The position numbers and the translations under genes are program-made. From positions 13,444 to 77,443 of IMG/VR virus record IMGVR_UViG_3300028920_001457: DNA of 64,000 bases, one strand, 5' to 3'. Source of the DNA: a virus. This document shows positions 13,058 through 29,692 of this stretch, one piece after another; within the stretch, counting starts at the first letter, position 1; each line of letters starts with the position of its first letter. The notes beneath the pieces were generated by a model that had not been told where the DNA came from, did not search any database, and saw only the letters and a list, made by a program, of their open reading frames with translations.

Positions 13058-13546
13058 TTATGTTAAATAGTCATTGTTCCATGTTGATTTATTTGTAATA
13101 TAGTCAACCCATTCCCATGTTTTCCTGGCTTTTTTTATGTCTTTGTCTGAGTAATAAAGATACCATAGCACCATTTCCCAATATAGGTCTTCGTCGTCTA
13201 CGGAGGCCACCCACCACGAACAGAACTGCCATCCGAAAAACCATATCTGAAATGACGGCGACCACTCAAAACGCGGTGTGCCATACTTGTCTTTCCATCC
13301 CAAACCATACCTGACAACCGCCATAGGCCAGCCATAGCTTATATCATAACCAAACAACCTGATGTAACTACATCTTAAAAACTTTGGTCTTTTCTTGCGT
13401 ATTGTAAGTATAGTTCTGTTAAAGTTCCATGGGTCAAAATATGGTGTGCCATGTCTTATTCTACCGAAGTAATACCTCTTGCGGGGTAACACGAAAACCC
13501 CGTCAATCTGTTTCAGTATCTTTTTAAAGCTTTTCATCAGTCCCAT
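13058..13546 (-). CDS. hypothetical Trp-rich phage protein
   Basis: LGWKDKYGTPRFEWSP segment. Confidence 0.7.
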   Translation of the reverse strand: MGLMKSFKKILKQIDGVFVLPRKRYYFGRIRHGTPYFDPWNFNRTILTIRKKRPKFLRCSYIRLFGYDISYGWPMAVVRYGLGWKDKYGTPRFEWSPSFQIWFFGWQFCSWWVASVDDEDLYWEMVLWYLYYSDKDIKKARKTWEWVDYITNKSTWNNDYLT

Positions 13547-20780: not shown

Positions 20781-21500
20781 ATGCCAAAATCAAAGACAAA
20801 AGACTGCCAGGGGATAAGTCTTAACAAAAGACGCAACAGGTGGGAGGTTACTATTATCTATAAAAGGAAGCGCTATTATTTGGGTTCTTATCACAACAAA
20901 AAGATTGCACGGGCTGTATGGGAGTCCAAGAGAGATGAATTTTATGGGACAGAATCAGTACTCGACTTGCGTGGCGAGGTTTGGATTAAAATGGATAAAC
21001 ATAAGGGGGAATATTATGTTAGCAATAAGGGGCGAGTAAAAAACCTAAATTTTAAGGGCATGGGCTACGAAAGATTGTGTGGTATCATACCTTCGCATGG
21101 CTATAATCAAGTAAAGATAAATAGGGAGAGTTATTCTATACATCGGTTAGTTTTACAATATTTTAAGGGAGAATCCGACCTTCCGGTTAATCACAAGGAC
21201 GGAAATGGAACAAATAATATTTTAGAAAACCTAGAGTATGTTAGTCAGCGGATTAATGGTTGCCATGGTTATTTTGTTGTGAACAAAAGAAATGTCCTAA
21301 CGGGGGCACATTGGGATAAGTGGAATAATAGTTGGCGGTCTGAAATAAACATTAATGGTAGATTGGTATATTTAGGGTCTTTTAATACATCCATAGAGGC
21401 ATGCGATAGATACTTACGGGCATTATTGGATTATGGCCTTCAGGATGATTATGATTATATTGTCGAAATGATTGGACATAAACCCCATGTCGGAAATTAG
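20781..21500 (+). CDS. HNH homing endonuclease (NUMOD4, HNH and AP2-like domains)
   Basis: GEVW...YYVSNKGRVK, HRLV...VNHKDGN..NN..ENLEYV, YLGSF. Confidence 0.88.
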   Translation: MPKSKTKDCQGISLNKRRNRWEVTIIYKRKRYYLGSYHNKKIARAVWESKRDEFYGTESVLDLRGEVWIKMDKHKGEYYVSNKGRVKNLNFKGMGYERLCGIIPSHGYNQVKINRESYSIHRLVLQYFKGESDLPVNHKDGNGTNNILENLEYVSQRINGCHGYFVVNKRNVLTGAHWDKWNNSWRSEININGRLVYLGSFNTSIEACDRYLRALLDYGLQDDYDYIVEMIGHKPHVGN

Positions 21501-22600: not shown

Positions 22601-22630
22601 TACCATTACGAAATTCTATCATAAGAAACG

Positions 22631-22656
22631 ACCCGTCAGTGATGGCGGGTTTTTTA
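22631..22656 (+). terminator. intrinsic terminator
   Basis: ACCCGTCA-GTGA-TGGCGGGT followed by a T run. Confidence 0.8.
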
Positions 22657-22690: not shown

Positions 22691-22722
22691 TTTGGTGGAT
22701 TCAAAAACATGTTTTATATTTG
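22691..22722 (+). promoter_or_regulatory. Bacteroidota primary-sigma promoter
   Basis: TTTG, 20 nt spacer, TATATTTG. Confidence 0.75.
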
Positions 22723-22957: not shown

Positions 22958-24712
22958 ATGAATACTTTAAGGTTATTCAATGCGGTAATCGCAAAAGAAT
23001 CTACAGAAAAACCCTTCGTTTCAGAAGAGGGATTTATCATTGAATCAAATGCTCTTTGGGCAAAAAATAGGATATTGGAATTCTATCTCAAGGAAAAGTT
23101 AAGTGGTAACGATCTTAACAAAACATTTCACAAATCATGGGCTAAAATTAAAAACAGCTCTCGGTTTGAATTGTTTGTTGAGCAGATATTTCATTATATT
23201 TCTACATACGGAAGTGATTTTCAGGACGAAATATATATTCCCGATGAAGTATTAAATGTACCTGACGTAAAGTTGTCATACAAGGTTGTCCGTGCATATT
23301 CCAAGGAGGAAATGACGGATAAGTGTTTATCACTATTAAAATCAGGTATAGCATTAAAGGAGGAAACAATTAATGAGGTGTTATCGGTGCTTGTTGAAGA
23401 ACTGGATTATTCCTTTACGGGAAATGAGAAAATCAGAAACAAAGAGGCTGTTATAAAAATAGCAGATATTTATGGCGTTCTGCCCAATGACACCATGGAG
23501 TTTTTCAGATATATTATATATCGGGCTACGGGGCAGTCTCTTCTTATTAAGAGCAATGATTTGATAATGAAAATTAAAGAAGGGAATTATAATCCGTCGG
23601 TTCAGTTTAATAAATTCGGATTAGAAAAATTGGCAACGATATTTAATCGTTTTAAGCCATTATTCTTGGCATTTAAACCCAAGTGCGGAAAAACGATCAA
23701 TAAAATTGCGAAGTTGTCTAAAAAGTTTCATAAACCTCTCGTTGTCAACCCCCTTAATACCGCAACAAGTGAGCTGATGGGGGATGATGATAGACATTGG
23801 TTGGATAATGCTACGCCGTACGCTTTATTTAAAGTATTATCGGCATGTTATACGAGAGCGAGCGGCCAAGAGTCTTTCGTTTATCGGATTAGAAACGGGA
23901 AATCCTGGGTCAAGGAAAAGGAAACTATTTTGAGGGTGAACAAGTTAAATTTTGATTTCATTATAAAGTATCTGAAAGAAAGATATGATTTATCAGAAAA
24001 GAAATTCTTTTTGCCTGCTGATATAAAATATGCCCTTCCTACATCAGAAAAAATGTTTGTTGGCAATATTCCCACAGGAACGAGATTTTATGGCAGGAAG
24101 TTGGCGGTTGGGATATATTGGGAGGACGCATGGGGGGCAAGAGACCTCGATCTTTCGGGGTTGACGCTTTCAGGGCATAAGGTTGGTTGGAATGCAGAAT
24201 ATGATTATGGCGAAGGACAATTAATGTATTCTGGCGATATTACATCCGCCCCCAATGGTGCGGTAGAGTACCTGTATGCCAACAAAGGGCTTCGGGAATC
24301 GGTTTTAATAAAAAACAATGTTTATTCGGGAAGTAATGAATGTGATTATAAAATCGTTATTGGGTTGGGGGATAAGATTTCTGTGGATTATATGATGAAC
24401 CCAAATAATCTTTTTATAGAAGTCAAATGTAAGTCCGTACAAAAACAGACCATATTGGGGATTCTTACTCCAAAGAAAATGGGGCAGTGCTTTGTATTGC
24501 TTAATTTTGGGGCGGGACATGTAAGGGTGTCGGGCAACAGTAAGATATCTAATATCGCCCTTAAGTCACTATATGAACAATGGAACAAACCGTTTTCATT
24601 TAATAAATTGATTAAATTATTGGGGGCGCAGATTGTTGAAAACAAAGAGGATGCAGATTATGATTTCTCGTCTGATAATTTAGAAAAAGATTCTTTTATT
24701 AAGATATTTTAA
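22958..24712 (+). CDS. large hypothetical protein with C-terminal TerD-like domain
   Basis: GIYW...RDLDLS...YSGDITSAPNGAVEY motif; helical N-terminal half. Confidence 0.7.
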   Translation: MNTLRLFNAVIAKESTEKPFVSEEGFIIESNALWAKNRILEFYLKEKLSGNDLNKTFHKSWAKIKNSSRFELFVEQIFHYISTYGSDFQDEIYIPDEVLNVPDVKLSYKVVRAYSKEEMTDKCLSLLKSGIALKEETINEVLSVLVEELDYSFTGNEKIRNKEAVIKIADIYGVLPNDTMEFFRYIIYRATGQSLLIKSNDLIMKIKEGNYNPSVQFNKFGLEKLATIFNRFKPLFLAFKPKCGKTINKIAKLSKKFHKPLVVNPLNTATSELMGDDDRHWLDNATPYALFKVLSACYTRASGQESFVYRIRNGKSWVKEKETILRVNKLNFDFIIKYLKERYDLSEKKFFLPADIKYALPTSEKMFVGNIPTGTRFYGRKLAVGIYWEDAWGARDLDLSGLTLSGHKVGWNAEYDYGEGQLMYSGDITSAPNGAVEYLYANKGLRESVLIKNNVYSGSNECDYKIVIGLGDKISVDYMMNPNNLFIEVKCKSVQKQTILGILTPKKMGQCFVLLNFGAGHVRVSGNSKISNIALKSLYEQWNKPFSFNKLIKLLGAQIVENKEDADYDFSSDNLEKDSFIKIF

Positions 24713-24713
24713 T

Positions 24714-24721
24714 TATCTTTG
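24714..24721 (+). promoter_or_regulatory. -7 promoter box for tRNA operon 1
   Basis: TATCTTTG, 4 nt before the leader ATG; no clear -33 box. Confidence 0.7.
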
Positions 24722-24725
24722 CACC

Positions 24726-24788
24726 ATGATTAGAATACAGCATATAGAGCAACCGCAACAGCCAAGAGCCGATATTGGGTCTGGATAG
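24726..24788 (+). CDS. attenuator leader peptide 1, MIRIQHIEQPQQPRADIGSG
   Basis: codons 4-13 are only Ile(ATA), Gln, His, Glu and Pro, the tRNAs of operon 1. Confidence 0.85.
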   Translation: MIRIQHIEQPQQPRADIGSG

Positions 24789-24811
24789 GTGTTCTATGTG
24801 TTTATAATACA

Positions 24812-24844
24812 GAGCCTTCTGGACTATTTCAGAGGGCTTTTTTT
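24812..24844 (+). terminator. attenuator terminator 1
   Basis: GAGCCTTCTGGA-CTAT-TTCAGAGGGCTT plus T run, ending 4 nt before tRNA-Pro. Confidence 0.85.
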
Positions 24845-24848
24845 ATTT

Positions 24849-24921
24849 CGGAAGTATGGTGTAATCAGGTAGCATACGTGCCTTGGGCGCACGGGGAGTA
24901 GTTCGAATCTAATATTTCCGA
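24849..24921 (+). tRNA. tRNA-Pro(TGG)
   Basis: CGTGC-CTTGGGC-GCACG anticodon arm; acceptor CGGAAGT/ATTTCCG. Confidence 0.9.
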
Positions 24922-24927
24922 CAATAT

Positions 24928-24999
24928 TGGCACATAGGTTAATGGTAAGACCTCTCGGCTTATACCCCAGCAGTCCAAGTTCGATTCTTGGTGTGCCAA
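24928..24999 (+). tRNA. tRNA-Ile(TAT)
   Basis: loop CTTATAC; acceptor TGGCACA/TGTGCCA resembles tRNA-Ile(GAT). Confidence 0.85.
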
Positions 25000-25000
25000 C

Positions 25001-25075
25001 GGTGGTTATGGTGTAATGGCAACATAACTGTTTGTGGAGCAGTGGTTATCAGTTCGAGCCTGATTAATCACCCCA
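25001..25075 (+). tRNA. tRNA-His(GTG)
   Basis: loop TTGTGGA, G-1:C73 pair, encoded CCA. Confidence 0.92.
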
Positions 25076-25076
25076 T

Positions 25077-25147
25077 GCTCGGTTCTTCTAACGGCAGGAA
25101 ATCGGGTTTTCACCCCGGCAATAGCGGTTCAATTCCGCTACCGAGTA
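25077..25147 (+). tRNA. tRNA-Glu(TTC)
   Basis: TCGGG-TTTTCAC-CCCGG. Confidence 0.9.
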
Positions 25148-25153
25148 CGATAA

Positions 25154-25224
25154 TGCCTTGTGGTGTAATAGTAACACATAACACTTTGGATGTTATGTTT
25201 TCGGTGCGAATCCGAACAAGGCAT
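25154..25224 (+). tRNA. tRNA-Gln(TTG)
   Basis: TAACA-CTTTGGA-TGTTA; U1:A72. Confidence 0.9.
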
Positions 25225-25233
25225 CAAAATAAA

Positions 25234-25264
25234 TTTGGAAATTTAAAAATATGTATTATCTTTG
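25234..25264 (+). promoter_or_regulatory. promoter for tRNA operon 2
   Basis: TTTG, 19 nt spacer, TATCTTTG. Confidence 0.8.
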
Positions 25265-25283
25265 TACCAATAAAAAACAAAAA

Positions 25284-25358
25284 ATGCAGTTAGTCAGAAA
25301 GAATATGGTGAATATTGACCGCACAGGCGCAACCTTGCGAGGGGGTATTCCTATATGA
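25284..25358 (+). CDS. attenuator leader peptide 2, MQLVRKNMVNIDRTGATLRGGIPI
   Basis: codons 4-17 cover all 11 tRNAs of operon 2 and nothing else. Confidence 0.88.
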   Translation: MQLVRKNMVNIDRTGATLRGGIPI

Positions 25359-25379
25359 TTTCTGTAAGAAACAACAGGG

Positions 25380-25408
25380 ATGCCCTCAAGAGATTGGGGG
25401 CATTTTTT
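25380..25408 (+). terminator. attenuator terminator 2
   Basis: ATGCCCTCAA-GAGA-TTGGGGGCAT plus T run, ending 2 nt before tRNA-Ile. Confidence 0.88.
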
Positions 25409-25410
25409 AT

Positions 25411-25481
25411 TGGCTCATAGTTTAATAGTAGAACGCATCTCTGATACGGATGTAGCCTAAGTGCGATTCTTAGTGAGCCAA
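25411..25481 (+). tRNA. tRNA-Ile(GAT)
   Basis: CATCT-CTGATAC-GGATG. Confidence 0.88.
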
Positions 25482-25485
25482 CAAT

Positions 25486-25558
25486 AGCGGGTTGTGTAGA
25501 AATAGTATCTCGTCAGTCTCATAAGCTGAAGTTATGGGTGCAATCCCCATACCCGCTA
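25486..25558 (+). tRNA. tRNA-Met(CAT), elongator-type
   Basis: TCAGT-CTCATAA-GCTGA; paired 1:72; Ile2 identity not excluded. Confidence 0.8.
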
Positions 25559-25562
25559 CAAT

Positions 25563-25634
25563 GGGAATATGGTGAAATGGGTATCACGATGGACTGTTAA
25601 TCCTTCGTTATAGGTTCAAGTCCTATTGTTCCCG
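25563..25634 (+). tRNA. tRNA-Asn(GTT)
   Basis: loop CTGTTAA, G73. Confidence 0.9.
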
Positions 25635-25638
25635 CAAA

Positions 25639-25710
25639 GTCCTTGTGGTGTAATGGAGAGCACAAGTGTCTTCTAAGCATTTAGTCAGGGTTCGACTCCT
25701 TGCGGGGACA
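25639..25710 (+). tRNA. tRNA-Arg(TCT)
   Basis: AGTGT-CTTCTAA-GCATT. Confidence 0.9.
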
Positions 25711-25716
25711 CTAAAT

Positions 25717-25791
25717 ACCCTTGTAGGCTCCTTGGTGGAGAACCAGATTGTCACTCTGGTAAAACAGACGGATCGTAACCGTTCAGGGGTG
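25717..25791 (+). tRNA. tRNA-Asp(GTC)
   Basis: CCAGA-TTGTCAC-TCTGG, G73. Confidence 0.85.
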
Positions 25792-25796
25792 CAAGC

Positions 25797-25869
25797 GGGT
25801 TGCAATGTACCAAGGCTGGCGAGAGACCCTTGCAAGGTTTTTGGCTCGGTTCGATTCCGAGGCGATCCA
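25797..25869 (+). tRNA. tRNA-Ala(TGC)
   Basis: loop CTTGCAA; G3:U70 identity pair. Confidence 0.88.
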
Positions 25870-25872
25870 CAA

Positions 25873-25944
25873 GCAGGATAGGTGTTGATGGTTGCATAAG
25901 AGCCTTCCAAGCTCAAGGAGTGAATTCGAATTTCACATCCTGCT
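25873..25944 (+). tRNA. tRNA-Gly(TCC)
   Basis: loop CTTCCAA, U73. Confidence 0.88.
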
Positions 25945-25948
25945 CAAT

Positions 25949-26023
25949 GGGCGATTAGTTTAATGGACAGAATATATCGCTACGGACGATATGGTGAGGA
26001 TTCGATTTCTTCATCGCCCACCA
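25949..26023 (+). tRNA. tRNA-Arg(ACG)
   Basis: TATCG-CTACGGA-CGATA, encoded CCA. Confidence 0.9.
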
Positions 26024-26025
26024 AT

Positions 26026-26097
26026 GACCCTATAATTTCAACAGTAGAATCCCATCCTTTTAAGATGGTTGTCTTGGGGCGGAACCAAGTGGGGTCA
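26026..26097 (+). tRNA. tRNA-Lys(TTT), atypical T-loop
   Basis: CCATC-CTTTTAA-GATGG; T-loop GGCGGAA. Confidence 0.8.
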
Positions 26098-26101
26098 CAA
26101 A

Positions 26102-26173
26102 GGCAGGTTAGTTTAAGCGGCAAAACACGTGATTTGTAACCATGAGATACGGCTTCGATCGCTGTACTTGCCT
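26102..26173 (+). tRNA. tRNA-Thr(TGT)
   Basis: loop TTTGTAA; acceptor GGCAGGT/ACTTGCC. Confidence 0.82.
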
Positions 26174-26178
26174 CAAAT

Positions 26179-26251
26179 AGCCCGATAGTGTAGCGGTTAA
26201 GCACGGCACCCTTACAAGATGTCAGCCACAGTTCGAGTCTGTGTTGGGCTA
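26179..26251 (+). tRNA. tRNA-Val(TAC)
   Basis: loop CTTACAA; canonical D and T arms. Confidence 0.88.
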
Positions 26252-26269
26252 CAAAAAAACATAAATATA

Positions 26270-26300
26270 TTTGTTTATTTAAAAATTATTATTAATTTTG
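26270..26300 (+). promoter_or_regulatory. promoter for tRNA operon 3
   Basis: TTTG, 19 nt spacer, TAATTTTG. Confidence 0.8.
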
Positions 26301-26306
26301 CAGATT

Positions 26307-26369
26307 ATGAAAAATCTATGGTGTTCATATAGTTTATTTTCACTCTTGCTCTTGAGGCGAGGCGGATAA
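26307..26369 (+). CDS. attenuator leader peptide 3, MKNLWCSYSLFSLLLLRRGG
   Basis: codons 4-16 cover all 9 tRNAs of operon 3 and use only those amino acids. Confidence 0.9.
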   Translation: MKNLWCSYSLFSLLLLRRGG

Positions 26370-26393
26370 ACTATATCTACCAAAGATATATTG

Positions 26394-26421
26394 AAGCCTC
26401 GCTTATAAAGCGGGGTTTTTT
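26394..26421 (+). terminator. attenuator terminator 3
   Basis: AAGCCTCGCTT-ATA-AAGCGGGGTTT plus T run, ending 5 nt before tRNA-Leu. Confidence 0.88.
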
Positions 26422-26426
26422 GTTAT

Positions 26427-26499
26427 GGGGAATTGACGTAAATGGCAACCGTATTGGGTTTAAGCCCCAAGTTTGAGAGTTCGAATCTCTTGTTCCCCA
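26427..26499 (+). tRNA. tRNA-Leu(TAA), short variable loop
   Basis: TTGGG-TTTAAGC-CCCAA, A73. Confidence 0.85.
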
Positions 26500-26502
26500 C
26501 AT

Positions 26503-26575
26503 GGTCGAGTGACGTAACAGGCAACCGTATCCGTCTCAAAAGCGGAGTTTATGGGTTCGAATCCCATCTTGACCA
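26503..26575 (+). tRNA. tRNA-Leu(CAA), short variable loop
   Basis: TCCGT-CTCAAAA-GCGGA, A73. Confidence 0.85.
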
Positions 26576-26579
26576 CAAA

Positions 26580-26652
26580 GCTCAGGTAGTAAATTGGCAA
26601 AGCAACTTGACTTAGGATCAAGGATTTGTGAGTTCGAGTCTCACCCTGAGTA
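26580..26652 (+). tRNA. tRNA-Leu(TAG), short variable loop
   Basis: CTTGA-CTTAGGA-TCAAG, A73. Confidence 0.85.
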
Positions 26653-26656
26653 CTAT

Positions 26657-26748
26657 GGATGGCTAAACCACAGTAGGTCTAAGTGGGACGGTCTTGAAAA
26701 CCGTAGGTCGCTCAACACGGCGTGTAAGTTCGAGTCTTACGCCATCCG
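26657..26748 (+). tRNA. tRNA-Ser(TGA)
   Basis: ACGGT-CTTGAAA-ACCGT, long variable arm, G73. Confidence 0.9.
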
Positions 26749-26752
26749 CGAA

Positions 26753-26835
26753 GGGACGGCTTGGCATTAGTGAGCCTAAGAGTCTGTAAAACTCCCGCTT
26801 CGGCTGTGGTGGTGCAAATCCATCTCGTCCCACCA
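26753..26835 (+). tRNA. tRNA-Tyr(GTA)
   Basis: loop CTGTAAA, variable arm, encoded CCA. Confidence 0.88.
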
Positions 26836-26836
26836 A

Positions 26837-26919
26837 GGAGAGTAAATCATCAAGGCGATGACTACGCCCGCTAAGCGATAGGTTCTGAAAGGAATGGGAC
26901 TCGGGTTCTCTGCTCTCCG
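26837..26919 (+). tRNA. tRNA-Ser(GCT), divergent
   Basis: acceptor GGAGAGT/GCTCTCC, G73, loop CCGCTAA, variable arm; irregular T arm. Confidence 0.7.
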
Positions 26920-26924
26920 CAAAC

Positions 26925-26994
26925 AGGGATACCCATTGGAGTGGTAAGCGGTCTCCAAAACCGTGATTTGAATGTTCGACCCGTTCTATCCCTG
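26925..26994 (+). tRNA. tRNA-Trp(CCA), reduced D arm
   Basis: GCGGT-CTCCAAA-ACCGT, G73. Confidence 0.82.
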
Positions 26995-26998
26995 CTAT

Positions 26999-27075
26999 GG
27001 AGAAGTAGCTGAGTCGGTTCAAGCGTCGGACTGAAAATCCGAAGTAGATGAGTTCAATTCTCATATTCTCCACCA
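26999..27075 (+). tRNA. tRNA-Phe(GAA)
   Basis: TCGGA-CTGAAAA-TCCGA, encoded CCA. Confidence 0.92.
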
Positions 27076-27076
27076 A

Positions 27077-27143
27077 GACCCAATAAAAGCACAAAACGTG
27101 GTTTGCAAAACCATGGGGGACGGTGCGATTCCGTCTTGGGTCT
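27077..27143 (+). tRNA. tRNA-Cys(GCA), apparently lacking a D arm
   Basis: GTGGT-TTGCAAA-ACCAT, perfect acceptor and T stems, U73. Confidence 0.78.
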
Positions 27144-27181
27144 CTAATATATTTCTTACCTTTGCATAAAACAAGAATAGT

Positions 27182-29692
27182 ATGGGCAAGAAACAACCGC
27201 CAAAGGCAGAAAAGAAACTTTCCTTTGAAACAGACTTTGAGTTACAGGAAGAAACCCGCCTAAAGCTACGTCCCGAAGATATAGTAAAGATAAAAGAGGA
27301 AGCAGGCAAACTACCCGATGACTTTAATCCTTATGGGAACTATATGCCCGAAAAACTCAGATTTCTGGGCGACGAACCACCCCCAAACACCAAAAGATTT
27401 GTTGGAATAAATGTGGATGATGATGATCTGACACCGATTTATGTAAGCACACCCGCCCCCCCGCCGAAAGAATTAATAGATTATCACGACCTACCACCCA
27501 CAGAACAATATTGGCGGCGTATGGAAGTACCCAAACGACTGCATAAATTAGAAGAGAGAGCCTTCCTTGCGCTATTTGAGGTAGAAAGAAGAAACAGGCA
27601 GGAAACAGTACAGGGCTATAGGATTTATCAGAAATATTGGGAAATATTAGAAGCAGAACAGGATAAATATGCGGAAGAGATAGCATGGATAAAAAAGATG
27701 TGGTGGTACAGGACTAACGGCTATTGGTTCTATAATGATGGCGAACCCGCCTATTGTACTGGTGAATATTTTGATTATCTTAACTTTTGGTATATAAAGG
27801 ATGGTGAGACACATGTGGAATTCAGGGAAGAGGATCGGGTTATTTCTATTTTTTCACATTATCTAAGAACAACAACCGAGTCTTTCGCCAACATAAACCC
27901 CACCACGGGTAGGGCAATGAAAAATAAAGATGGCAAGTATGATATGGTGGATGTCGGTGCAAGAGTATTTTTCGGTGACATGAAACCGAAATTCAGGAGG
28001 TGTGGGGAAACGCAATGGGCGTGTCACGGGATATGGCTTGGTGCGAGTACGACACCCGCCGCTTATGGTACTATCATATCCATGGATGGTGAAAACGCAC
28101 AAAAGCACTATTACAAAAAGCTAATACCCGCATGGAATAAATATCCTATGTTTCTCAAGCCAATATGGATGGGTACGAAACGTCCCACAAATATTAAGTT
28201 GATAGAACCACCCAATGTATTTAATCCCAATATGGAGGGATTGGGTTCTAATATTGATTATACAGAAAGCTCCGGGGTGTCGAAGAATGATGGTGATACA
28301 TTACATTTTTGTCTCTCAGACGAGGAGGGAAAAAGTAAGTCACCTATAGCCGAAAGGTGGAGTGTAAATAAGATAGCTATGTCAACGGGTGGTGGGTCTA
28401 ACATCCTTAATAACGCTTATGCGTGGCATCCGAGTACCGTTGAGGATATTGGTGACGGTGCGCCAGAGTATTTTAAAATGTGGCAACTATCTAATTTTTA
28501 TGAAAGGATACCCATACTTGGGCAGACACACTCGGGGTTGGCAAGGATTTTCATTCCCGCATATAAGAAACTCGAGGGTTTTATTGACAGGTGGGGTAAG
28601 TCGGTATCGGATACACCAACGAAACGACAGATAAAATACAGTCCACGAGCCAAATTTGCACTCACGGGCAAGGGTGCAAGGGAAACACTACAGGCAGTTC
28701 TTGATTCCTTGTTAGCCAAGGGGACACCCGAGGCACTTGAGGCATACAGGTCAAGGCGCAGAAAGTTCCCGATGAAGTCGGCAGATGCATGGTTGGGGAG
28801 TTCGGGTAATGTGGGTTTCAACCTTGAGATAATAGACAAGCGTATAGAGGAACTCAATAGGATAAAGTCTTTTGGCAAGATGAATTATAAAACCGGGTAT
28901 TTTTACAGGGAAAACAATCATCCACAGGGCGATGTGTTGTGGCGTACAGACCTCGACAACCCCAAGTTTATCATGTCCAAGGACTTACCACAGGAATTAA
29001 CCAACAGAAGGAGTGTGGTCGACTTTTACGATGGTCTCAGGCAACAGTGGAAGAAATCATGGACACCAGTAGACGGATATAAATTCACCCTTGGGGTGGA
29101 TATGTTCAGAAATCTATCGCCCGTAGAGGCAAAACAGGCATCTAAATTTGGGGGATTTACCAATAACTCCCGCCAGAGTAATGGTGGTATAGCTATTCTA
29201 TGGGAATATGATTCAGAATATCCCGATAGTGGCAGGTGTGTATTGTCGTATAATTATCGTCCATCGACACAAAAAGAGTTTATGGATGATGTTCTTATGG
29301 CGGCACAGTATTTCGGGGCAATGATATATCCCGAACAAAACGTAGAGCGGTTTATTGAGTATATGTTTGATGAGGGCTATGGCGGGTATGGGCTTTATGA
29401 TATTGATTTGGTAACTGGTAATATAAAGAAACTACCAGGGCGATATACTACAAAAGAAAGCCTGCAAGAGATGTTCAGGGAATATAAGGACTATATAGAA
29501 CGTAAGGGTGCGGAAGAAGAACACGATGATTTGCTAATGCAGATGAAAAACATACGTGGGGTAGAAGATGCTACACGTAATGACCTTTTCGTTGCTTTCG
29601 GTATGTGTCTTCTTGGAAGTAAGTCCCGTGTCAGGGAAATTATAAAGCGTGAAGACTTTGGTGAGGCAATAGCAATAGACGATATTTTTTAA
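27182..29692 (+). CDS. terL: terminase large subunit (crAss-like type)
   Basis: KFRRCGET Walker-A variant, LSDEEGK Walker B, LGVD nuclease motif, RND near the C-terminus; directly upstream of portal. Confidence 0.88.
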   Translation: MGKKQPPKAEKKLSFETDFELQEETRLKLRPEDIVKIKEEAGKLPDDFNPYGNYMPEKLRFLGDEPPPNTKRFVGINVDDDDLTPIYVSTPAPPPKELIDYHDLPPTEQYWRRMEVPKRLHKLEERAFLALFEVERRNRQETVQGYRIYQKYWEILEAEQDKYAEEIAWIKKMWWYRTNGYWFYNDGEPAYCTGEYFDYLNFWYIKDGETHVEFREEDRVISIFSHYLRTTTESFANINPTTGRAMKNKDGKYDMVDVGARVFFGDMKPKFRRCGETQWACHGIWLGASTTPAAYGTIISMDGENAQKHYYKKLIPAWNKYPMFLKPIWMGTKRPTNIKLIEPPNVFNPNMEGLGSNIDYTESSGVSKNDGDTLHFCLSDEEGKSKSPIAERWSVNKIAMSTGGGSNILNNAYAWHPSTVEDIGDGAPEYFKMWQLSNFYERIPILGQTHSGLARIFIPAYKKLEGFIDRWGKSVSDTPTKRQIKYSPRAKFALTGKGARETLQAVLDSLLAKGTPEALEAYRSRRRKFPMKSADAWLGSSGNVGFNLEIIDKRIEELNRIKSFGKMNYKTGYFYRENNHPQGDVLWRTDLDNPKFIMSKDLPQELTNRRSVVDFYDGLRQQWKKSWTPVDGYKFTLGVDMFRNLSPVEAKQASKFGGFTNNSRQSNGGIAILWEYDSEYPDSGRCVLSYNYRPSTQKEFMDDVLMAAQYFGAMIYPEQNVERFIEYMFDEGYGGYGLYDIDLVTGNIKKLPGRYTTKESLQEMFREYKDYIERKGAEEEHDDLLMQMKNIRGVEDATRNDLFVAFGMCLLGSKSRVREIIKREDFGEAIAIDDIF

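Follow-up and report, generated by a model that had tools for sequence, protein, structure and literature searches.

A candidate leader-peptide attenuator written in the codons of the nine tRNA genes that follow it in a phage tRNA array

Organization of the locus

The stretch of DNA analysed in this study (the window) consists of 64,000 nucleotides, positions 13,444 to 77,443 of the virus record IMGVR_UViG_3300028920_001457, a 77-kb IMG/VR record with a CheckV completeness of 77%. Positions 24849-27146 of the window hold 25 tRNA genes, in which all 20 amino acids are represented; three modules, each made of a promoter, a short open reading frame (ORF) and a hairpin with a T-run, divide this array into three blocks. 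We are concerned here mainly with the third module, leader 3, which an earlier note, made from the sequence alone, had taken for a transcription attenuator, and with the nine tRNA genes that follow it (block 3). The features of leader 3 are, in window coordinates:

26270-26300, + strand: Bacteroidota-type promoter, with the −33 element TTTG (26270-26273), a 19-nt spacer and the −7 element TAATTTTG (26293-26300)
26307-26369, + strand: leader-3 ORF, 20 sense codons and a TAA stop (26367-26369), peptide MKNLWCSYSLFSLLLLRRGG
26316-26354, + strand: putative regulatory run, codons 4-16, CTA TGG TGT TCA TAT AGT TTA TTT TCA CTC TTG CTC TTG
26327-26339, + strand: strand 1 of a 13-bp helix (the 1:2 helix), within the regulatory codons
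26364-26376, + strand: strand 2 of the same helix, which includes the stop codon
26355-26363, + strand: 5' arm of the predicted antiterminator, AGGCGAGGC, made of codons 17-19 and the last base of codon 16; it pairs with 26396-26404
26344-26350, + strand: antiterminator extension, pairing with 26409-26415 in the 3' arm of the terminator
26393-26421, + strand: predicted intrinsic terminator, with a 12-bp stem (26393-26404/26408-26419), a 3-nt loop and a T-run (26416-26421)

Block 3 consists of the following genes:

26427-26500, + strand: tRNA-Leu(UAA), canonical, found by ARAGORN in standard mode and by the Rfam tRNA model
26503-26576, + strand: tRNA-Leu(CAA), canonical, found by the same two methods
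26580-26653, + strand: tRNA-Leu(UAG), canonical, found by the same two methods
26657-26747, + strand: tRNA-Ser(UGA), with a long variable arm, found by ARAGORN in relaxed mode; Rfam scores it as tRNA-Sec, of the same clan, with 39 bits
26748-26835, + strand: tRNA-Tyr(GUA), canonical, found by ARAGORN in standard mode
26837-26920, + strand: tRNA-Ser(GCU), with a non-canonical (bulged, weak) anticodon stem, found by ARAGORN in mitochondrial mode only
26925-26995, + strand: tRNA-Trp(CCA), found by ARAGORN in relaxed mode
26999-27075, + strand: tRNA-Phe(GAA), canonical, found by ARAGORN in standard mode and by the Rfam tRNA model
27076-27146, + strand: tRNA-Cys(GCA), with a D region that has no Watson-Crick stem, found by ARAGORN in mitochondrial mode only

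The earlier note had counted these nine genes as three tRNA-Leu, two tRNA-Ser and one each of tRNA-Tyr, tRNA-Trp, tRNA-Phe and tRNA-Cys. The count stands for the seven that ARAGORN detects in standard or relaxed mode; it needs qualification for tRNA-Ser(GCU) and tRNA-Cys(GCA), which depart from the canonical fold and are missed by the Rfam tRNA model. In tRNA-Cys(GCA) 13 of the 19 pairs are maintained via compensatory changes among five homologues, and the GCA anticodon is invariant. Moreover, homologues of both genes are detected by ARAGORN in standard mode in some of the related phages described below, those of Ser(GCU) in L012 and L019. The D region of tRNA-Cys(GCA), ATAAAAGCACAAAAC, looks similar by eye in L006 and L019, and the other helices covary.

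Codon content of the leaders

According to the earlier note, codons 4-11 of leader 3 (CTA TGG TGT TCA TAT AGT TTA TTT) are read by eight different tRNAs of the downstream cluster, and the TTG at codon 14 supplies the ninth. Both statements held when the coordinates were rechecked: the ninth tRNA is tRNA-Leu(CAA), and a second TTG is found at codon 16. With strict wobble rules, codons 4-16 form an unbroken run of 13 codons readable by block-3 tRNAs, and contain a cognate codon for each of the nine. For comparison, random ORFs were drawn 200,000 times from the phage's own codon usage: coverage of all nine tRNAs has a probability of P = 2.5e-5 in this set, and a run of 13 was never reached. Leader 3 also ranks first on both measures among the 390 ATG-initiated ORFs of 15-30 codons in the window, the next best run being 8 codons long. 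The match is specific to the reading frame, as the longest run of block-3 codons is 13 in the ATG frame versus 3 and 1 in the other two. Chance is excluded as the source of this codon match. Since the leader is written in exactly the codons of the nine tRNAs, the phage probably makes these tRNAs only when the codons of leader 3 are read slowly.

The other two leaders were analysed in the same way. Leader 1 (24726-24848; peptide MIRIQHIEQPQQPRADIGSG, followed by a stop) covers five of the five block-1 tRNAs (Pro, Ile(UAU), His, Glu, Gln) and has a run of 10; leader 2 (25284-25410; peptide MQLVRKNMVNIDRTGATLRGGIPI, followed by a stop) covers 11 of the 11 block-2 tRNAs (Ile(GAU), Met, Asn, Arg(UCU), Asp, Ala, Gly, Arg(ACG), Lys, Thr, Val) and has a run of 14. 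A cross-matrix of leaders and blocks shows a clear diagonal, with off-diagonal coverage of 0 to 5 tRNAs per block, and the diagonal dominates also in L012 and L019. The core QHIEQP of leader 1 is conserved in the relatives that carry it (L012, L019, L020, L021/L022), as is the core NM(V/M)NIDR of leader 2 in its carriers (L010, L012, L019, L020). The notion that leader 3 is a chance ORF within a structured spacer draws only on the fact that short ORFs are common (the window has 390 of them); in view of the codon statistics, the frame specificity, the three-fold replication within the genome and the conservation in relatives, it can be set aside for practical purposes.

We note in addition that tRNA-Ile(UAU) lies at 24928-25000 and that leader 1 has two matching ATA codons. 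With four-way wobble at U34 the 25 tRNAs read 60 of the 61 sense codons, CGG being the missing one. The three blocks correspond to a rough partition of the genetic code, with TNN, CTN and AGY in block 3, CCN, CAN, GAR and ATA in block 1, and the remainder in block 2.

Promoter and start site

The promoter of leader 3 conforms to the Bacteroidota consensus, taken here from PMC6847099. Matches to TTTG-N17-21-TAnnTTTG number 17 in the window, the leader-3 site included, against 2.9 expected, and 17 was reached in none of 100 shuffles. Sigma-70 promoters were also scanned for, and showed no excess over shuffles. In Flavobacterium johnsoniae the −7 element occupies positions −12 to −5, and the start site follows it at a distance of 4-5 nt (PMC6847099). 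Because the −7 element of leader 3 ends at 26300, transcription would by this rule start at about 26305-26306, only 1-2 nt 5' of the AUG, and the leader mRNA would be leaderless or nearly so; in the relatives the distance between −7 element and ATG is 4-7 nt. About 5.5% of the transcripts of Flavobacterium psychrophilum are leaderless, and the same study reports strong indications that amino-acid operons of this species are preceded by leader-peptide attenuators (PMC9723704). The machinery of the presumed host appears, by this analogy, to be compatible with an attenuator. The 5-nt gap between the terminator and tRNA-Leu is too short for another promoter.

RNA structures and the modelled switch

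Three structures had been proposed for leader 3, and all of them were recovered. The 13-bp helix (26327-26339/26364-26376) has 11 Watson-Crick and two G-U pairs, the antiterminator (26355-26363/26396-26404) has 9 bp, one of which is G-U, and the terminator is where it had been placed, with its stem at 26393-26419, the T-run extending to 26421 and tRNA-Leu beginning at 26427. As the antiterminator and the terminator share positions 26396-26404, they are mutually exclusive. The leader RNA folds with −40.6 kcal/mol, z = −5.2 relative to dinucleotide shuffles, of which 0 in 200 folded as well, and its terminator is among the two strongest terminator-like sites on the + strand between 20 and 32 kb.

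The effect of a ribosome was imitated by masking, prior to folding, all the RNA up to 10 nt beyond the A-site codon. A mask that puts the A site at codons 2-5 yields the 1:2 helix together with the terminator. At codons 6-13 the fold of lowest energy is instead the antiterminator with its extension, and from codon 14 up to the stop, where the mask hides the arm, the terminator is regained. We have also folded co-transcriptional snapshots, in which the RNA was cut after the 5' arm of the terminator, for four sequences: in all four the antiterminator is present with the A site anywhere up to and including codon 13, and absent from codon 15 on. Masked folding of the leaders of L010, L012 and L017 gives the same switching as in the window. 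In these models the stall-sensitive window coincides with the block-specific codons. Because the stop codon lies in strand 2 of the helix, 4 nt beyond the antiterminator arm, a terminating ribosome would mask that arm. Overall, the features of a leader attenuator are present in silico: a short ORF, codon enrichment, an intrinsic terminator, an antiterminator and the geometry for a stall, with L019 as an exception at equilibrium. Masked folds of leader 2 contain an antiterminator with the A site at codons 6-11 and 14-15. With leader 1 no antiterminator was obtained in any of the equilibrium masked folds, so that any switch in leader 1 escapes simple folding.

Conservation in related phages

Pattern and protein searches yielded six homologous leader-3 regions, which together with the window form a seven-sequence alignment. 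L006 and L019 are from IMG/VR, L010, L012 and L017 from metagenomes, and L036 is from the record behind L020 (record G001). Identity to the large terminase (TerL) of the window is 73-78% for L010, L012 and L017. All six relatives keep the promoter, the ATG, a frame of 19-20 codons, the place of the stop, the terminator and the presence of tRNAs directly 3' of it. Over the seven sequences, the fraction of paired cells is 94.8% for the terminated state and 97.3% for the antiterminated state, versus 33-57% in controls in which the helix partners were slid by 1-3 columns. For the individual helices the values are 95.6% (13-bp helix), 93.9% (terminator), 96.8% (antiterminator) and 98% (extension, which is almost invariant). 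Compensatory changes are few: U-A to C-G in the 1:2 helix of three sequences, A-U to G-C in the terminator of one, and C-G to U-A at a single antiterminator pair in two. Identity in the relatives amounts to 78-88% in the leader ORF and 72-95% in the terminator segment, and is lower in the tRNA genes behind them (51-74%) and in the upstream spacer (57-70%). We give this difference, and the codon changes described next, more weight than the covariation.

The changes within the leader are informative as to what is being conserved. Codons are permuted in the relatives: TGG TGT occurs as TGT TGG, and TTA TTT TCA as TTT TCG CTA or TCG TTT TTA. Of the distinct codon replacements at positions 4-16, 12 out of 13 remain within the block-3 set (P = 0.008); the null used here is conservative, as it allows for the layout of the genetic code, which by itself would keep 57% of the single-base neighbours in the set. 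Because codons are permuted while replacements are kept within the block-3 set, selection acts on which tRNAs read the leader and not on the peptide. Two TTG codons are found in the four sequences that have Leu(CAA), and one TTG in the three that lack it; this agreement counts as one evolutionary event, since the two groups are two clades.

Other sequences were also inspected for modules of this kind. The TerL relatives L001-L003, L011, L013-L016 and L018 have no tRNA array next to TerL. Relatives of a 584-residue protein encoded upstream of the array (L007-L009) have no comparable leaders, the array of L009 being built differently, and in the array of the crAss-like phage cr111_1 (L005) there are no clear modules of codon-matched leader and terminator. 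In the 42 kb of Cellulophaga phage phi19:3 that were examined, one tRNA is annotated. Looser pattern scans of viral and genome contigs gave chance matches only, with no tRNAs, and the contigs from four salt-marsh runs are short mosaic unitigs of related arrays with no usable full leaders.

Evaluation of the attenuator model

The reading of leader 3 as an attenuator, put forward in the earlier note, is supported by the frame-specific codon match, by the switch obtained in silico, by the retention of the ORF, the stop and the structures in six relatives, and by a resemblance to Rfam leader families that is described below. Judging from the sequence and the folding models, leader 3 is probably a ribosome-mediated (leader-peptide) transcription attenuator that gates block 3 in a phage of a Bacteroidota host.

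A number of observations weigh against this interpretation. Translation of the near-leaderless ORF is an assumption of the model. With only 1-3 codons per tRNA, sensitivity should be lower than in classical leaders with runs of codons, and the two TTG codons specific for Leu(CAA), at positions 14 and 16, fall on or beyond the limit of the stall window in the model. L019 has a longer terminator, which at equilibrium prevails wherever the ribosome is stalled. Covariation is thin: the antiterminator pairs are mostly invariant and a shuffle control was not significant, although invariant pairs as such say nothing either way. The leader of L012 has no CTA codon, yet Leu(UAG) is retained. In L036, block 3 (1614-2032 of record G001) ends after Ser(GCU) and has five tRNAs; its leader is unchanged and keeps TGT, TGG and TTT, and tRNAs for Trp, Phe and Cys were not found anywhere in this 86%-complete record. 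In L021/L022, leader 1 precedes the remnant of a deletion, a truncated tRNA-Pro fused to tRNA-Trp, followed by Phe and Cys. These mismatches may reflect recent losses to which the leader has yet to adjust. In L036 and in L021/L022, at any rate, the leader and the tRNA content do not vary together, and all the relatives belong to one lineage and hence are not independent replicates.

Two alternatives draw on some of these same points. According to the first, leader 3 does not switch at all: its hairpin and T-run act constitutively, as a partial terminator, an insulator or a processing site, and the ORF encodes a micropeptide or serves a translation-dependent stabilization of the RNA. The weak covariation of the antiterminator, its absence from the folds of leader 1 and the dominance of the terminator of L019 at equilibrium are all in line with this idea, but an unconditional 12-bp terminator 5 nt ahead of the tRNAs, with their promoter about 100 nt upstream of it, would mostly silence them. 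The permutation of codons speaks against a functional peptide; the segment 26355-26363 is nearly invariant although it does not consist of block-3 codons, for which RNA pairing is the best explanation; and the stall window coincides with the regulatory codons. We regard the absence of a switch as improbable.

The second alternative accepts the same attenuator hardware and changes the signal, which would be a general one (translation capacity, amino-acid starvation or the stage of infection), so that leader 3 would act as a switch for timing or growth state. Lack of a tRNA and lack of its amino acid cannot be told apart by a stalled ribosome, the presence of one to three codons for each tRNA provides weak sensitivity to any single species, and L036 retains Cys, Trp and Phe codons without the corresponding tRNAs. 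On the other hand, a general signal has no need for three leaders written in the codons of their own blocks, with a nearly clean partition among them, nor for replacements confined to the codon set of the block. This possibility is somewhat less remote than that of no switch at all, but we still consider it unlikely.

Comparison with known systems

In function, leader 3 comes closest to two kinds of known attenuators, the multivalent leaders of amino-acid operons and the leaders of synthetase genes. Multivalent leaders are found in enterobacterial amino-acid operons, such as ilvGMEDA, which responds to Ile, Leu and Val, and thrL, which responds to Thr and Ile. Leader 3 would share with them a short ORF in which several amino acids are represented by codons, a terminator and an antiterminator that exclude each other, and a logic in which a stall leads to read-through and free translation to termination. 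It differs from them in preceding tRNA genes rather than biosynthetic enzymes, in sensing, as modelled, nine tRNA species for six amino acids with 1-3 codons each and no runs, and in being nearly leaderless, phage-encoded, driven by a Bacteroidota promoter and without sequence homology to them. The best Rfam matches of leader 3 are Trp_leader (RF00513, 30 bits), Leu_leader (RF00512, 25.5 bits) and Phe_leader (RF01859, 25.2 bits), whose gathering scores are 41, 50 and 55, respectively; since none of these scores is reached, leader 3 belongs to none of the three families. The 1:2 helix and the terminator do align to the models, and the resemblance is architectural.

Like the leader pheM of pheST and the leaders of hisS (PMC2965389), leader 3 would sense the supply of charged tRNA and adjust a component of the translation apparatus. 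The product of those attenuators is a synthetase protein, whereas that of leader 3 would be the sensed tRNA itself, in a direct closed loop.

With T-box riboswitches leader 3 would have in common an attenuation of transcription by the status of tRNA through the reading of codons by anticodons. T-boxes are a precedent for the direct sensing of tRNA, and one may ask whether leader 3 is a translation-independent RNA sensor, in which the codon string is displayed to the anticodons of the tRNAs it faces, in the manner of a T-box specifier, with tRNA binding deciding between terminator and antiterminator. However, a T-box binds uncharged tRNA without a ribosome, through one specifier codon and conserved motifs, and none of these traits is present in leader 3; the regions 24000-28000 and 26260-26440 were searched with the T-box model RF00230 and gave no match at E <= 1. 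Thirteen adjacent specifiers would be without precedent, and the strict frame specificity, the conserved ATG and the conserved in-frame stop inside strand 2 of the helix also speak against such a sensor. A sensor of this type is therefore very improbable.

The array itself resembles the phage tRNA arrays described in PMC10264068 and PMC11555353 in being a phage-borne, near-complete set (here 25 tRNAs for 20 amino acids). Those papers treat the function of the tRNAs; in their abstracts a demand-sensing transcriptional control of the arrays is not described.

Proposed mechanism and implications

In the attenuator model transcription would start 1-2 nt 5' of the AUG, and a ribosome would load once the 5' end has emerged from the polymerase. 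A ribosome that moves unhindered through codons 4-16 to the stop at 26367 would cover the antiterminator arm (26355-26363), the terminator (26393-26419) with its T-run would form, and the RNA polymerase would stop 5 nt before tRNA-Leu. If instead the ribosome is slowed at any of codons 4-13, the arm would remain free to pair with 26396-26404, the terminator would not form, and the nine tRNA genes would be transcribed. Block 3 would thus be turned on when usable tRNA for Leu, Ser, Tyr, Trp, Phe or Cys runs short, and turned off by its own products; the loop closes on tRNA supply because the nine regulated tRNAs are those that read the sensing codons. The parts of the locus, the codon match and the alternative structures with their conservation are seen in the sequences and folds; that the ORF is translated, where transcription starts, that it terminates, in which direction the switch works and what triggers it in the cell are what we infer from them.

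Candidate triggers are the depletion of host tRNAs during infection or the action of tRNA-cleaving defence nucleases. Phage tRNAs are known to act against defences that cleave tRNAs (PMC10264068, PMC11555353). In L010 a full-length gene for the tRNA-repair ligase RtcB (519-1688; PF01139, E = 5.6e-115), with a TAnnTTTG promoter of its own, lies between blocks 1 and 2; RtcB is absent from the 77%-complete record of the window itself. The work on counter-defence by phage tRNAs, together with the presence of RtcB within the array of L010, makes tRNA cleavage a plausible trigger. We lean, if only slightly, towards the broader view that tRNA supply in this phage lineage is under the control of a closed-loop homeostat. 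A ribosome-read sensor in front of each block, written in the codons that match the anticodons of that block, would detect which part of the host tRNA pool has become depleted or has been cut, by anticodon nucleases for instance, and would have just that set transcribed. If this view is correct, leader 3 would be the first case of ribosome-mediated attenuation in which the tRNA that is sensed is also the product under control, and would represent an unrecognised regulatory layer in the conflict between phage and host over tRNAs.

Leader-peptide attenuation is a textbook mechanism for amino-acid biosynthesis and for a few synthetase genes. To our knowledge it is not known for tRNA genes, and in a literature search whose coverage left out most subscription journals we found no paper describing leader-peptide control of tRNA genes. 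In our assessment tRNA genes would be a new class of targets for leader-peptide attenuators. The identity of sensed molecule and regulated product would provide direct feedback on the supply of tRNA, with three independently gated codon families. If real, the mechanism implies that phage tRNA arrays can be driven by demand rather than being constitutive, and it provides a signature for searches (promoter, codon-matched short ORF, terminator, tRNAs). It would also offer a natural multi-codon reporter of decoding speed, and make the question of why phages carry tRNAs testable.

Host and genomic context

Nearly the whole window is present in a marine-sediment run, and related sequence occurs in salt-marsh metagenomes; no RNA runs are listed that contain the stretch. 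The large terminase gene lies at 27182-29692 (match to the PHROG terminase). Its cultured relatives are all distant and all from phages of Flavobacteriia, the best being that of Cellulophaga phage phi19:3 (Pachyviridae), with 24% identity. On account of these TerL relatives and of the enriched Bacteroidota promoter motif, the host of the phage is very probably a member of the Bacteroidota.

On the minus strand, ORFs run across the tRNAs at 26663-27196 and 26377-26502; they match no Pfam family and were set aside. There is no terminator 3' of the last tRNA, and a TAnnTTTG element is found at 27157-27164, 17 nt before the ATG of the terminase; read-through of block 3 would therefore enter the packaging and structural genes. 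An HNH gene is located upstream of the array (20781-21500), and endonuclease genes are found in the arrays of relatives, PD-(D/E)XK in block 3 of L019 (5315-5710) and HNH in block 2 of L017 (571-1023). The position of endonuclease genes within or beside the arrays suggests that homing elements reshuffle them. Further upstream of the array, a terminator-like hairpin at 22630-22651 is followed by a promoter match at 22691-22722 and, after about 230 nt, by the ORF of 584 amino acids mentioned above, which belongs to no Pfam or PHROG family.

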